A program made the position numbers and the translations under genes. A stretch of 64,000 bases of DNA from Vairimorpha necatrix (taxonomy: Eukaryota). The stretch lies in NCBI GenBank assembly GCA_036630325.1, contig CP142737.1, positions 124,001-188,000 of the forward strand, in the 5' to 3' direction. The notes below the pieces were generated by a model. The model saw only the letters and a list, made by a program, of their open reading frames with translations. It searched no databases and was not told where the DNA came from. Position 1 is the first letter of the stretch. Each line of letters opens with the position of its first letter. Of the stretch, positions 20,647-55,027 are shown one piece after another.

Positions 20647-21017
20647 TAAACACATCAACATATTTTAAGATCACGAAAATTAAGAATGCATTTTATTTTT
20701 TAAATACTAAGAGGTAATAACTTTATTGGAGTTCTTATTTATCATAAGTATAATTGATCTTTTTTATATGTGTATATAATGTTTGCTATGATATAAACAC
20801 AATGTCAAAACATGTTCTACTATTAGTATAAATTCATAAAGTTTAACTGTTTTGTGATATATGGTCTGAAACCAATCACAAAAATTTATTTTTAAATTTA
20901 TAATTAATTGATTGGTTATCGCTTTTAGCAAATCGTAAATAACAAAAACTTCATAATAAACAATAAAGAAAGAGCACAATTTTAGATCAGATTGATTTTA
21001 ATAAAGATAACGAAGAT

Positions 21018-21805
21018 GGTGCCCTTAGCACAGTGGTAGAATGCAATGCTTCCATTGAGCAATGGCTGGGTTCGATTCCCGGGGGCACCAAAATTGTTTC
21101 TACTTCTATGATGCAGTTGGAACAACTCAGATGATGAAAATGTCCACGACTATCATTAAGTTGATTGAATGAAACGTGTGTGTGTTCAGCCACAAGGGGA
21201 TTAGCATCTAGTGTAGAAACGCACCTCAAAGCCAAAAAGCAGTATATCGCCCTTTGGTGACTTAATTATACATAAAAGTATCTAATGGGTACGGCCTAGT
21301 TGGAGCACATGCCCGGTGCACTCTAGAGTGAGATCCTAGAGCTAAAGAGAGACTAGACGAAGTAGGGCAATAGAAGGTCTCGTGGACCCTATCCTACATG
21401 ATTCTGTAACACGGTGGCCGAAACTAGTGGGAGACTGATGGTCAACGCAGCCCAATAAAAACGCCGGGCTGGGGATGTGGTCGTGTAAGGAGCCGTGTGT
21501 GCAATACGGATGATTGTAGGGACCTTTGAGTCAGTACGATGATGTCTCTCCTCGGGTTATAGATAACCATGCCCGTTAAGTATATCCGCTGTGAGGTCAC
21601 TCTGGACGCGATTTGAGGTATAAATGGAAAGTGTTCTCCTGGAGCCAAAGTCCAATGGATACGTCGAAGCTTGCTGCCCCGGCAAGTTGTATGGAGGGAG
21701 TTTTAGTGAGTAAGAATCTCACAGTGCCAGTCGGATGAGAATCCCACCCAAATCCCTCTGGTCCCTATGTAAGGTTTCTCCCTATCTCTTACTTGCAAGA
21801 AAAAA
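21018..21805 (+). mobile_element. tRNA-headed SINE-like retroposon, copy 1
   Basis: tRNA-like head 21018-21090 (GGTGCCC/GGGCACC acceptor stem, A-box TAGCACAGTGG, B-box GGTTCGATTCC), A-rich tail and 15-bp TSD AAAGATAACGAAGAT (21003-17, 21806-20). Collinear diverged copy at 54269-55027. Confidence 0.9.
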
Positions 21806-36142: not shown

Positions 36143-36700
36143 TTACATTGTCTCCCATATCTTATTGGTTATTTTATATTGTGCTTCATTCTTCATTTCT
36201 TCTAAATCTACTTCCACTATACATTTCTTCTTACTACTTCGTATCCTACATATATTCCTCTTCTCTTTACTTATCTCTATCCCAAATCCCTTTATAAGTT
36301 CAAGATACAACTGATAAAAACACGGCTTATTTAATGAGACCATCTCTTCATTTGACCTCTTGATGGTCAGGTCAAGCTCGTCAACCTCACTCTTCATTTT
36401 ACTGAACTCATTCTCTAAGTCCACATACTTCTTAGCCAGTCTAAGTCTCTCATTATTTACAAATTTATATTTCTCATTGTTCTTCGTGTGGCTTAGTTTG
36501 ATCTTGTTTATCTCATTCTCGATATTGGAGATCTTCTTTTCTAAGAGATCTGTATTATTGAGAATACTACTGAGAGTAGAAGAGTGTTCTTTAAGGGAGA
36601 TGGTATTTAATTCTATGACACTAGTGAGGAGATGAACATCTAGAAGATTATCATAGTCAGTTATCTTAGCCAAGATATCATGAATATCAGAGGAGTCCAT
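36143..36700 (-). CDS. SPC24: Kinetochore Spc24-like protein
   Basis: Coiled coil followed by LYLELIKGFGI...YKITNKIW, resembling the Spc24 globular domain. ATG 36700 after CCC. Confidence 0.65.
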   Translation of the reverse strand: MDSSDIHDILAKITDYDNLLDVHLLTSVIELNTISLKEHSSTLSSILNNTDLLEKKISNIENEINKIKLSHTKNNEKYKFVNNERLRLAKKYVDLENEFSKMKSEVDELDLTIKRSNEEMVSLNKPCFYQLYLELIKGFGIEISKEKRNICRIRSSKKKCIVEVDLEEMKNEAQYKITNKIWETM

Positions 36701-36832
36701 AAGAAAGGGCAAAAACTTAAAAATGTGTAAAAAAGATATAAAGAAATAAAATACAGTATAAAACAATATAATAACTTTATACTACTATAATGAAATAATA
36801 TATATTTGATTTTATAAAGTTAATTTGTTTTA

Positions 36833-37159
36833 TTAATTAATCTTCTCAGTTAATAAATCTGATTCCCCTTCATGTAAAACACTCATCACTCCTGTCCTGT
36901 ACTTCAACTCACACAAATTTGCAAGCGCATTATTCGTCCCTTCATAAAACTTCAAGGGTATTCCACCCGCCAAAACACAGTAATATTCTAACTGCTTCCT
37001 TTTTACAGAAGGAAGACTACTAGAGACAACAATACACTTGGCCTTCTTAGTGATGACATTTCTGAGAGCACTCTTGAAACCAATATCATATTTACCAGTC
37101 TTGACTACTAGAGGAAGAGAAGCGGCTAAACCGACGGCCTTGGAATATCTGCGACTCAT
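36833..37159 (-). CDS. RPL30: 60S ribosomal protein L30 (eL30)
   Basis: [35 protein letters not shown]. Confidence 0.93.
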
Positions 37160-37233
37160 TTTTAAAGGGGCAAAAAAAAAAACAGCATAAATAAAAAAAG
37201 AAGCAAATAAAAAAAAGGAAATTTGACAATTTG

Positions 37234-37547
37234 AAAAAAGTTAACATTGACCAACTGGTACTGTGCGATTCTTACTCATTATAAAAAATCATAGCGGCAA
37301 CGCTATGTAGATTAAAACAAACATTATAAGAGATCAACAGATATAAAAGAACAAATAACTTGGAAGTCTTTTTTTGCTACCATCTGCATTTAAACACAGC
37401 CAATTTAAGCATACCATGAATTCTATGTGGACCACGCAAGCAATTAAGCCTTACGTCCCTATGATTTTAAATAGCTTAAATATTCGTCTAAAAAGGACAA
37501 AGTCCACTAAGACTGGTCACACACAAGTTTCATTGAATCAACTTAAC
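37234..37547 (-). ncRNA. Candidate ~310-nt structured ncRNA, possibly RNase P/MRP-like
   Basis: Non-coding, with complementary ends followed by T6. GAAAC-U-UGUGUG / AAUCGCACAGUAC forms a P4-like pairing. A helix closes three hairpins. End blocks are shared with both SINE copies. Confidence 0.55.
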
Positions 37548-37610
37548 CTATAAATCTATATATAAAATATAAATATATATATATTATATTTTGTGTCATA
37601 CTTAGATTAA

Positions 37611-38840
37611 TCATTTATTTTTCTTCATTTCATTGTCAATAAGTTCCATCCTTTCCACTAGCGTAGGGTGACTATGATAAAATGTCGAATACACATAATC
37701 AGGCGACAGATTCCCTTTATTCTCCTTATTAAGCTTTATCAACGCACTAGACAGTTCATTTCCATACCCCTGTCTTACTGCATATATATCAGCCTCTCTC
37801 TCATATTTCCTAGACAAAATATTATTACTCAATCCCAGAGGTATCTCCGTAATATTCAAGAAGTATATCACATAAGATATCTTTATTATCAATGGTTCAT
37901 TTTGATAAAACAAAGTCTTATTAAAGTAATCATTATTGAGTAATTGATTAGTAGACCAGAATAAGAAGAGTTGTTGTATCAAAACACATACTACTAATTT
38001 AAGAGTGTGGCTATTATACCAGTGACCGAATTCATGACACAATACTGCCAATATTTCGTCTTCATTCATTTGATTTCTTAATGTATCGTACAAGACTATT
38101 CTTTTCTCTTTACAAAGGCCTACAAAATACGCATTAGAATGCGATGATCTGGTAGATCAATCCATAATAAGAATCTTGGAAGTTTTAAATCCTATTTTAG
38201 TACAAAGATCTTTTATCTTGTCTTTTAATGATCCATCTTCTAAATTAGTAAATTTATTGAATAATGGCTGGATATAAACAGGGAAAATGACTACTAAACA
38301 GATTTGTGTAATAGACATGAATACCCACAAATAGAACCAGAAAGAATTCAGATAATTACTTATCAAATACAATACTACATGTAAAATGAAGAAGAAGACG
38401 CCATTAAGAATCATAGTACTCTTAAATAAATCCATGAAAAACAAACCCAGAGTCATTTTATTGAACCCATGGGCGTGTTCAATCTGGAAAGTCTGGTAAA
38501 GATTAAAAGGAATATCAAGTAGAGAATTAATATTGTAAACAGCTAAGAAGAACAAGACTTCAGACATGTACAAATTAGAGAAATAAGAATTATAAAAAGA
38601 CTGGTTGAGTCTGTATTTTAAGATGACTAACTCTTTACAAGTCAAGATTAAACATTTAAAAATACTGAAGAAGAGTTTGTCATTATTGTATTTCTGCATT
38701 TGAAGGTATTCCTCGTCAGATGACATGGATTTGGAGATGGCGGATTTTTCTTTGTGTAAGGCGAGTATTTGCCTAAGAGTTAAGTAGATTTGGACGAGGG
38801 AATTAAAAAGAGTAAAAAATATTATTGAGTACTCGATCAT
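37611..38840 (-). pseudogene. STE24: CAAX prenyl protease Ste24 with a single in-frame TGA (38157-59)
   Basis: PLFNKF, MD*STRSSHSNAYF, HEFGH zinc motif, SRKYEREAD, HSHPTLVER. Both ORFs are in the same frame. Confidence 0.85.
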
Positions 38841-39138: not shown

Positions 39139-39987
39139 TTAAATATATTTAAATTTATTATTTCCTAATATCTCATTTACTTTCTTGAAAAATTCGTCTT
39201 TTCCTGTTCCCGTTTTACTTGACACTGACACTGTCTCAATTTCATTATAAAACTCCTCAAAATTCAAAGCCAGAGATCCAAGCAGGGGCGTCGTACTCTT
39301 TTCTTCGTCCAAATCTTCTCTAAACTTCTCATAATCTCTAATCCATGTCTCTATCTTCTCTGATTTACTTATATCAGTTTTATTAAATGTACACAATACT
39401 GGTATATTGTACCTACACATAAGACTAATACTATAAATCATATTACTCATAAAAACTGATGTATCCTGTGACATTTCACTGTCTACAACATAAATCATTA
39501 TTACATTCCCGATTTTACTAAAAAAATCTTTAAGTACGTAGCCCGGGGAAGACCAAGTAAAAGACTCAATTTGGCCGGGAGTGTCAATAATAACATATTC
39601 ACTATTAAAAACCATATATTGAGAAATATTAAGTAAAAACAAATTTAAAGATGTAGTGATCGCCCCATTTGGGCCGAGATTGTATTTCTCCATTACGTCG
39701 TAATAATCAATATGGTCTTTAATGTCCAAATTTAAAGGCATTTTACTGTTCACGACTGCGGGATCTAAATTGACAGAAAAAATGTGCTTGTTTAAGCCTG
39801 ACTTTGGGTCGATTTTACATTTGTCACTTGAGATCCAAGAATATAATCTCTGGCAAAAAGTCGTCTTACCAGATCCAGCCATACCTACTACTATAAAAAT
39901 AGTAGGTTGACTAAGTTTAAGATTGGAAATGTCTTGTTCTATATTTTTATTCGGATTTGTAATGTCTTGTTCTACATTTTTATTCAT
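39139..39987 (-). CDS. GPN1: GPN-loop GTPase 1 (Npa3/XAB1)
   Basis: GMAGSGKT, NLDPAV, LGPNG, DTPGQIESFTWS. Confidence 0.93.
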   Translation of the reverse strand: MNKNVEQDITNPNKNIEQDISNLKLSQPTIFIVVGMAGSGKTTFCQRLYSWISSDKCKIDPKSGLNKHIFSVNLDPAVVNSKMPLNLDIKDHIDYYDVMEKYNLGPNGAITTSLNLFLLNISQYMVFNSEYVIIDTPGQIESFTWSSPGYVLKDFFSKIGNVIMIYVVDSEMSQDTSVFMSNMIYSISLMCRYNIPVLCTFNKTDISKSEKIETWIRDYEKFREDLDEEKSTTPLLGSLALNFEEFYNEIETVSVSSKTGTGKDEFFKKVNEILGNNKFKYI

Positions 39988-52985: not shown

Positions 52986-54268
52986 TACTATTTATATCAA
53001 ATAAAAAAGAAAAAGCTTGTAATAAAATCGAATCGAAATTTTCATACAAAATAATGGTGCTTTTAAAAATTCAATTTTTAGACGATGTTTTGCTCGAATT
53101 ATAATATTTTTAATTTTAAACATGATTTCGAGTTTGAAATGCAAAAAACATTGCTGTAATTCATAGACAAGCAAAATTTAATGATTTACTAAGTCCATCA
53201 AATAATAAAATTTTACTAAATTTTTACGCCTTATTTAAAATATCAGAAATCCGCAAAAAAAAATTTCATTATAACATGCACCATATTTTTTGTGCATAAC
53301 CTTTAATCCATATATGAAATTAATTTAAAGCGTTTGTTCATATTACAATATTGCATATCGGTTTTCTTTTACAATCAATCGTGTTACTATTTGCCTCATC
53401 AAATTATTTCTATTTGAATATCTATTATCATGTTTTTATTGTGACATTGGCTGTTCAAACTGTGCGACGTGGCCACTCTTTGATTAAGGTCATAAAATTT
53501 ACAGTAGTCGGCTGTGTGTTAAAAGTATTTTCAAAGGCTATATTGATATTTTTAAGCCCAAAGTAATTGTATATCTTTTAAATGAATTATTTTTCTCATT
53601 TTTTATATTCTAATCCATGTTTAGAGCGGAACACTATCTAGCACATAATTGTACAGTGAACACTTGAACTTAATTAATAAGTAGTCATCGTAATGTGGAT
53701 TAAAATTCGTAGTCACTATCCTGACAACAAAAAATTAAAACCTTTTTCCTGTGCATGACCGTTTGAAAACTGCATTGAAAATTAAAAAAACGTGAAAAAT
53801 AATAAGCATTAAAAAAGACTTTGCGGGTTAACTTGAATAATGAAAAAAGATGATTTTGACGCTGTTTTTTTTTAAACAAGACCTAAGGAATTGTAAATGT
53901 AATCATAGGAGTTGTCCTGGTTTATTCCATGTTTAGACCGATTATCTCTCTCGGAAAGAAAGCAAAATCTCTCAATTTGTTTGATATTGTGTCTCAGAGT
54001 CGTTAAAATTAACGAAATTGACAACGTTCTTCACAGTCTTGTGTCCATCCCTGTTATTTGTCTATGAGGCATCTTATGCTCTCCATTTATCACAATAAGA
54101 CTCGTTAATATATTATCTTGTATTGCCTCAAGGAAACTTGTATCATTTCTACTGAACACAAAACAAGTAAAGCACACGCGGGTTCCACATTATTCAATTT
54201 CTTTAAAATAGACGTTAATTTTTTTTTCCATTTCAAAAAAAACTCATCTGTTTTAACAAATTTTGTAA

Positions 54269-55027
54269 GGTACCCTTATAGCCCAATGGTAAACAGCGAT
54301 GCTTTCAAGGAGAGAAGGCTGGGTTCGATACCAGGGCAGCAAAATTGTTTCTATTTTCTATGATCATTGGAACAACTCAGATGATGAAAATGCCCACGAT
54401 AATCATTATGTTGATTCAATGAAACTTGTGTGTGTCAAGCCATAGGGTAATTAGCATCTAGTGTAGAAACGTACCTTAAGGACAAAACATGCGATCCTCT
54501 TGTGGAGACTTAATGATACATAAAAGTATCAATGACTACGGCCTAGTTGGAGCCCATAGCTGGCGCGCTTTAGTATTGGATCTGAGAGTTAATAAGAGAC
54601 TAGATGAAGTGGGGCAGTAGAACGTCGCGTGGACTCTATCCTACACGAAAATGTAACACGATGGCCAAAGCTAGTGGAAGATTGCTGTAAATGCAGCCCA
54701 ATAAAAACGCCGGACTCTTAATTTAATTAAGTTATGAGCCGTGTGTGCAATACTGATGATTGTAGGGATCTTTAAGTCGGTACGGTGACATCTCTCCTCG
54801 GGTAATATGTAACCATGCCTGTTAGGTATATCCACTGTGAGATCACTCTGGAAGGGGGTTATGGTTTCTTTGATGACAGATTCTTTTGGTGCCAAATTTT
54901 TATAGATATGGCTTAGTTGCTGCGCCGGCAGGTTATATTGAGGGAGTTTAGTGAGAAAGAATCTCATAGTACCAGTGGATAAAAATCCCTATGTAATATT
55001 ATTCCCTACTTCTCACTTGCAAAAAAA
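54269..55027 (+). mobile_element. tRNA-headed SINE-like retroposon, copy 2 (diverged)
   Basis: Collinear with 21018-21805. A-box TAGCCCAATGG, B-box GGTTCGATACC, ends ACTTGC-A7. No TSD visible. Confidence 0.88.

Follow-up and report, generated by a model that had tools for sequence, protein, structure and literature searches.

SINE-related blocks in a microsporidian STE24-RPL30 spacer and their resemblance to the P4 core of RNase P and MRP RNA

What is the short minus-strand stretch that separates a STE24-type protease gene from RPL30 in a microsporidian genome, and how did it come to share two blocks of sequence with a SINE family? We asked this of a window of 64,000 nucleotides, by which we mean the whole stretch of DNA that was analysed. 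The preliminary description treated the stretch as a candidate non-coding RNA. It proposed that the two blocks, A and B, pair to form a P4 core like that of RNase P and MRP RNAs and that this core is common to the SINEs, and it offered as identities either the host RNase P or MRP RNA or a domesticated relative of the SINE. Our analysis leads to a different reading, to which we assign a probability of roughly 0.5, namely that the stretch consists of two SINE-derived patches in a spacer that is passively transcribed.

The source of the window is a microsporidian of the Nosema/Vairimorpha clade, and the product of the GPN-loop GTPase gene at 39139-39987 shares 76-77% identity with proteins of Vairimorpha bombi and V. 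ceranae and 68% with that of Nosema granulosis. The flagged element starts 65 nt past the STE24 stop and ends 75 nt ahead of the RPL30 start (Table 1), and the spacer has small ORFs of 21-51 aa, with nothing to suggest that it is coding. Its G+C content is 33%, compared with a median of 27.4% and a 90th percentile of 34.7% for 314-nt windows and with 28% for the window overall. TTAA is present at both ends of the locus, the ends of ~18 nt are complementary to each other, and a TATA-rich stretch lies just upstream of the element. The STE24-type gene is itself broken by one in-frame TGA (38157-38159, minus strand, ...IMD*STRSSHSNAYF) at a position where its relatives presumably have glycine. The gene may be a pseudogene, or the stop may belong to one allele or stem from an assembly error; of the two sequencing runs considered below, X1 and X2, neither has a contig across the site, and an X2 record at 37645-37853 shows no differences.

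Table 1 Positions in the window of the flagged stretch, its parts, its neighbours and the two SINE copies
Feature	Position	Strand	Remarks
Flagged stretch, 314 nt	37234-37547	minus	within the 450-nt STE24-RPL30 spacer
Block A, 29 nt common with the SINE family	37518..37546	minus	GAAAC + (UG)4 stretch, proposed P4 5' strand
Interior, 239 nt, 33% G+C	37279..37517	minus	without detectable likeness to the SINE interior
Block B, 25 nt common with the SINE family	37254..37278	minus	AAGAAU-CGCACAGU stretch, proposed P4 3' strand
3' end	37234..37253	minus	strand pairing with the start of block A, then T6 (element position 311)
STE24-type CAAX protease gene, upstream neighbour	37611..38840	minus	Pfam PF16491 + PF01435
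RPL30 upstream region	37160..37233	minus	T-rich, GCCCC motif ~10 nt before the ATG
RPL30 gene (L7Ae/L30e family), downstream neighbour	36833..37159	minus	Pfam PF01248, E 1.5e-11
Spc24-like gene	36143-36766	minus	Pfam
SINE copy 1	21018..21805	plus	tRNA-Met-like head, ~700-nt body at 47% G+C, poly(A) tail
SINE copy 2	54265..55027	plus	77% identity to copy 1 over ~790 nt

Both blocks were found where the preliminary description had placed them, and their only matches in the 64-kb window are the two SINE copies, with order and orientation kept. A 17-nt core of block A has three matches in the window, the candidate itself without a mismatch, 21168-21184 with one and 54418-54434 with none, and three matches were reached in 0 of 100 shuffles. 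Similarly, a 24-nt core of block B has three matches, with 0, 2 and 3 mismatches, and a shuffle mean of 0.00. Permissive blastn of the candidate against the SINEs returned two colinear same-strand matches only, one of 34-47 nt at 83-88% identity and one of 34-35 nt at 80-85%, and the E values of the block A and B matches within the window ranged from 2.6e-05 to 0.004. In a three-way alignment 26 of the 29 columns of block A are invariant, and block B reads TGAG-N-AAGAATC-N-CA-N-AGT-N-CCAGT. The candidate agrees with the SINE copies at 27/29 and 28/29 positions of block A and at 23/25 and 22/25 positions of block B; for copy against copy the figures are 26/29 and 22/25. Because the distance from the candidate to each SINE copy is the distance between the copies themselves, the locus behaves as a member of the family in these blocks. 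Judged by these alignments, blocks A and B are homologous to the SINE family.

The family has a length of ~790 nt, a body of 41-47% G+C in a window of 28% G+C and, by depth in run X2, tens of genomic copies. At the head of copy 1 ARAGORN reports a tRNA-Met at 21017-21091, which scores 27 bits with the Rfam tRNA model, under the gathering score of 29. This copy is bounded by a perfect 15-bp target-site duplication, AAAGATAACGAAGAT, at 21003 and 21806, and, as a sequence that Pol III must transcribe in full, it contains no T-run beyond T4. Copy 2 has no clear target-site duplication. The two copies, at 77% identity, have many fully conserved blocks of 17-27 nt. Beyond the window, a block A pattern had no match among metagenome, viral and prokaryote genome contigs, a second SINE block had none among viral contigs, and of 181 pattern matches of the RPL30 protein to metagenome contigs none was confirmed.

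Outside blocks A and B we could find no such likeness. The preliminary description had reported that the spacer between the blocks differs, and this was borne out, with 239 nt here versus 522 and 517 nt in the SINEs and interiors that do not align. When the interior was compared with those of the two SINEs, the local alignment scores were equalled by 87 and 65 of 300 shuffles and the chained alignment scores by 197 and 11 of 200. The 154 nt upstream of block A fared no better against the SINE 5' parts (37 and 111 of 300 shuffles reached an equal score), nor did the sequence past block B against the SINE tails (125 and 249 of 300). A tRNA-like head is absent from the locus, the copy 1 head being the only one that ARAGORN reports in the window, and there is neither a poly(A) tail, the minus strand there being T-rich rather than A-rich, nor a target-site duplication. 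The locus thus resembles tRNA-derived SINEs and their intergenic fragments in that its blocks are homologous to a tRNA-Met-headed family, but it differs from them in having no head, tail or duplication, in an unrelated interior and in sharing only ~60 of ~790 nt. Conservation is uneven, blocks A and B being ~90% identical to the SINEs and the remainder unalignable, and a single decaying insertion would not give a pattern in which these blocks are kept while all else is beyond alignment.

The suggestion that the stretch is the host RNase P or MRP RNA did not hold up. We searched Rfam 15 with the whole window at the gathering score and with 37100-37700, 37228-37552 and both SINE copies at E <= 10, and in these searches neither RF00009 nor RF00030 was matched; at the gathering score no family matched the window at all. 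PMC5499648 counts Nosema RNase P RNA among the RNAs available in Rfam 12, so a true RNase P RNA of this clade should have matched. By our count from the totals in section 3.1 of that paper, the Nosema MRP RNA is not among the Rfam 12 finds, so that failure to match Rfam weighs less heavily against MRP than against RNase P. Among other RNAs, we saw no convincing match to SRP, U1, U4, U5, snoRNA or telomerase RNA motifs by eye, and Rfam gave none. A match to GcvB (18.1 bits, E 0.062), which is a bacterial family, was put down to chance, probably to a hairpin followed by a U-run.

We expressed the P4 signature as a descriptor consisting of GAAA-N, a U bulge, 2+6 pairs of which no more than one could be G.U, strands 80-500 nt apart and GAA no more than 5 nt before the 3' strand. 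The descriptor has one match in the window, and this is at the flagged locus. First-order Markov shuffles contained a mean of 3.29 matches per window, and 97 of 100 had at least one, so that the signature is without statistical weight in DNA of 28% G+C. For MRP RNA, PMC1796607 gives the P4 consensus gaaAGuCCCC / acnnnanGGGGCUna and the search form gaaAGuCCCC ... acnnnanGGGGCUnannnu with the strands 80-500 nt apart, the loosest search allowing two deviations. At the locus the strict 5' pattern is absent; only one of the six consensus pairs agrees, and neither the unpaired 'ac' nor the final 'a' is present. PMC1796607 also describes microsporidian MRP RNAs as being without P3b and P6, lists P1, P2, P3a, P4, P8 and P10 as universal and gives a GARAR loop of P8 and a CR-IV motif AnAGUnA for MRP. 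Neither of these motifs, nor AGARA, occurs in the 316-nt element. Furthermore, the terminal helix ends at U14 and GAAA begins at position 19, and no hairpin fits between them, so that P2 and P3 cannot be accommodated; the preliminary description had likewise found no convincing place for them upstream of block A. We also tested the element with what we take to be the consensus motifs of RNase P regions CR-II, CR-III and CR-IV; UGNAA occurs only inside block A, and one AGNNNNAU occurs at element position 61, which is the wrong place.

Signals that would mark the start and end of a gene were also considered. The 94 nt that precede block A contain no CCC/GGG start motif; PMC5499648 places this motif near the start of all Encephalitozoon and Nosema ncRNA and mRNA genes. 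Two T-runs that the preliminary description had missed, T5 at 37494-37490 (element position 56) and T6 at 37288-37283 (element position 262), lie upstream of block B, and a Pol III transcript would thus probably end before an A/B helix could form, in a group for which section 4.3 of PMC5499648 regards the polymerase in use as not settled. Taken as a whole, the likeness to RNase P and MRP RNA lies in the GAAA followed by a helix with a bulged U, the purine-rich run before the 3' strand and the paired ends, all of which can be drawn at the locus. The differences are that the locus has no model match, no P2 or P3 and none of the motifs searched for, that T-runs interrupt it, and that the helix is unfavoured and without covariation.

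The pairing of blocks A and B was only partly upheld by folding. It can be drawn, as the preliminary description had it, as eight pairs with a bulged U, but it is absent from the minimum free energy (MFE) fold and has a pair probability of 0.002-0.004. Forcing the helix gives -68.1 versus -72.5 kcal/mol, a cost of 4.4 kcal/mol, and the GAAAC-(UG)4 stretch of block A pairs instead with a segment ~90 nt downstream, at a probability of 0.7-0.99. Nor did we find a P4 core common to the SINE family, as had been claimed, since the SINE copies do not show the A/B helix, thin as the evidence of two copies is. Complementarity between the blocks is 8/8 pairs in the candidate and 7/8 in each SINE; both SINE copies have a U.U mismatch, copy 1 has a G for the bulged U, and among the three sequences (the candidate and the two copies) there is no compensatory change in the helix. 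In a consensus fold of the two SINE copies, blocks A and B each fold locally and not together. There block B forms the hairpin GUGAG-UAAGAAU-CUCAC(U) at the apex of a nested 3' domain, in which a C-to-U change gives a G.U and keeps the stem; in the candidate two of the five pairs of this hairpin are lost. AGUUG in block A of the SINEs is paired with the stretch immediately upstream of it, with one pair changed on both sides, from U-A to A-U, and the nested stems GCAAGU/ACUUGC and AGGGAG/CUCCCU are present in both copies.

Other structural elements that had been proposed for the flagged stretch, the GACCA/UGGUC helix, the CAUAGCG/CGCUAUG hairpin, the complementary ends and the final T6, are all in the MFE fold. 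The stability of the whole fold is no better than that of shuffled sequences (z -1.14, with 10 of 100 folding as well). The terminal helix has 14 pairs, four of them G.U, and one bulge, with pair probabilities of 0.4-0.98, and T6 comes directly after it. It forms on the minus strand only, for which the MFE is -72.5 versus -53.5 kcal/mol on the plus strand, a difference of 19 kcal/mol; at the DNA level 10 of the 14 positions match. The interior also contains a 7-pair hairpin, CATAGCGTTGCCGCTATG (37307-37290, minus strand), with four G-C pairs, a UUGC loop and T6 after it, which has a shuffle mean of 0.1 and resembles a bacterial intrinsic terminator; it may also lie behind the GcvB match.

Copy number and transcription were assessed with the two runs. 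X2 is a low-depth DNA run of the same species, with ~3-fold depth at single-copy flanks. Here a 43-nt contig over 37513-37546 has a depth of 203, the block A bin stands at 336 and the block B bin at 35, with flanks at ~3, and the loose ends at 37513 run on into several variants of SINE sequence. Block A is the multi-copy core of a family with subfamilies. The interior appears to be single-copy, so that the locus would not belong to a repeated short subfamily, but this is not firm, as it rests on absent X2 cover; contigs are lacking over 37436-37509 in both runs and over 37288-37509 in X2, which is evidence neither way. Run X1 is listed as 'DNA?' and behaves like RNA, because the depth reaches 9e5 over RPL30 and is nil over STE24, and because the T-run at 36810, which is non-templated, is consistent with a poly(A) tail. 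Two X1 contigs, 37152-37244 and 37246-37374, have depths of 375-511, three orders of magnitude under RPL30, and 44 further letters of the second were aligned by eye to ~37418. Together they pass over the terminal T6 and extend as far as the start of RPL30. They show neither ends nor strand, and they fit low-level read-through better than a discrete small RNA. The X1 strain has six differences within 37332-37402, of which three fall at positions paired in the MFE fold; all three break their pair and none is compensated. As a separate observation, the X1 bin that contains block A (37510-37583) has a depth of 8232, its loose ends run on as SINE sequence, and SINE-family RNA seems to be present in the X1 sample.

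How, then, might two well-kept blocks come to lie in an otherwise unrelated spacer? On the reading that we prefer, of SINE-derived patches in a passively transcribed spacer, a member of the SINE family or a divergent relative would once have given sequence to the STE24-RPL30 spacer, and the head, tail and interior of this insertion would later have been lost or replaced. We speculate that patches A and B might have been kept near the consensus by short ectopic conversion from the many genomic copies. The sequence around and between them would be ordinary AT-rich spacer without function, the apparent P4 helix would be a by-product of (UG)4 in block A meeting CACA in block B, and transcription of the spacer would be passive, at a low level, by read-through towards RPL30. 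The family-like distances of A and B from each SINE copy and the abundance of the family count for this reading. The lack of any RNA-gene signal in fold z-score, Rfam, CCC/GGG motif or internal T-runs also counts for it, as do the X1 contigs that run unbroken across T6 into RPL30, the strain differences that break predicted pairs and a G+C content inside the range of the window. The uneven conservation, the strand-specific terminal helix with its T6, the absence of head, tail and duplication and the apparently single-copy interior count against it. The first two of these points also make a single-copy minus-strand small RNA gene, with two functional modules common to the SINE family, the main rival, if the weaker proposal. 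Such a gene could be a domesticated relative of the SINE or a host RNA from which the SINE took blocks A and B, with the blocks as putative binding sites for a common host factor. In its favour are the retention of A and B at ~90% around an unrelated interior, the 14-pair terminal helix on one strand with T6 directly after, the TATA-rich stretch just upstream and the X1 contigs over 37246-37418. The block B hairpin of the SINEs is also broken here, and A/B complementarity is perfect, 8/8 versus 7/8 in the SINEs. However, there is no CCC/GGG start motif within 94 nt upstream, T5 and T6 precede block B, the X1 contigs run past the final T6, the fold has no advantage over shuffles, the X1 strain differences disrupt predicted pairs, and no Rfam family matches. 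Of the earlier proposal of a domesticated SINE relative, it is thus the relatedness that is supported, by two homologous blocks; domestication, in the sense of an expressed and conserved RNA gene, would go beyond that.

We consider it very unlikely that the locus is the RNase MRP RNA of this lineage, and less likely still its RNase P RNA, in an extremely reduced form in which A/B would be P4, the terminal helix P1, and P2 and P3 would have been lost. The locus allows GAAA, two pairs, a bulged U and six pairs to be drawn, AAGAA preceding the 3' strand, and the spacing of 239 nt is inside the 80-500 nt of the MRP searches in PMC1796607. Microsporidian RNase P and MRP RNAs have a very small P3 and domain 2, according to PMC1636426, and the absence of the Nosema MRP RNA from our count of Rfam 12 finds also favours the MRP form of this proposal. 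Nevertheless, chance alone would give 3.3 signatures per window, RF00009 and RF00030 give no match at E <= 10, five of six consensus P4 pairs depart from those in PMC1796607, GARAR, AnAGUnA and AGARA are missing along with any sequence for P2 and P3, a Pol III transcript would stop at the T6 ahead of block B, and the SINE copies have a mismatch and a G at the bulge with no covariation. A further alternative, a MITE-like DNA element whose complementary ends would be terminal inverted repeats next to TTAA, also seems to us most improbable. It would account for TTAA at both ends and for ~18-nt complementary ends; in addition, MITEs were reported in 2013 from the rDNA of N. bombycis, as cited in PMC10946416, and PiggyBac is among the N. 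bombycis repeats in Table 2 of PMC3614468. Against it, only 10 of the 14 helix positions match at the DNA level, the other four being G.U, the 64-kb window holds no second copy, and homology to a retroposed SINE would be left unexplained. X2 also shows no multi-copy signal for the interior, a point that is not firm, resting as it does on absent cover.

Both ends of 7SL RNA are retained in Alu and B1. 7SL with Alu and B1, together with the BC1, BC200 and 4.5S RNAs, resemble the present case in that a single-copy locus has end modules in common with a SINE and the interiors differ; the difference is that evidence of a promoter signal, a discrete transcript or conservation across species did not come to light here. 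By this analogy, it is conceivable but improbable that the locus is a single-copy gene for a small RNA, and that an abundant SINE with a tRNA head took its end modules from this gene or passed them to it, which would make a counterpart of 7SL and Alu in a microsporidian; the same SINE-related gene might even be the cryptic, P3-less RNase MRP RNA of the clade. A gene of this kind would trace a SINE body in a reduced parasite genome back to a host RNA, or would reveal a route for SINE domestication. If instead the stretch is spacer with SINE-derived patches, as we prefer, the lesson would be one of caution, in that a P4-like signature arises by chance at 28% G+C and short patches derived from transposable elements can mimic conserved regions of ribozymes.

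The SINE family may merit description in its own right. In the microsporidian literature, so far as it was accessible, we found SINEs only as a class-level entry for N. bombycis, in Table 2 of PMC3614468. In SINE copy 1 the 3' domain (21695-21783) weakly matches the Rfam family R2_retro_el (RF00524; 20.2 bits, E 0.099), for which neither copy 2, where 21 nt are missing, nor the candidate gave a match at E <= 10. This weak likeness of copy 1 to an R2 3'UTR is possibly a clue to the LINE partner of the family; in the same table SINEs make up 0.18% and the LINE Dong-R4 1.04% of the N. bombycis genome.
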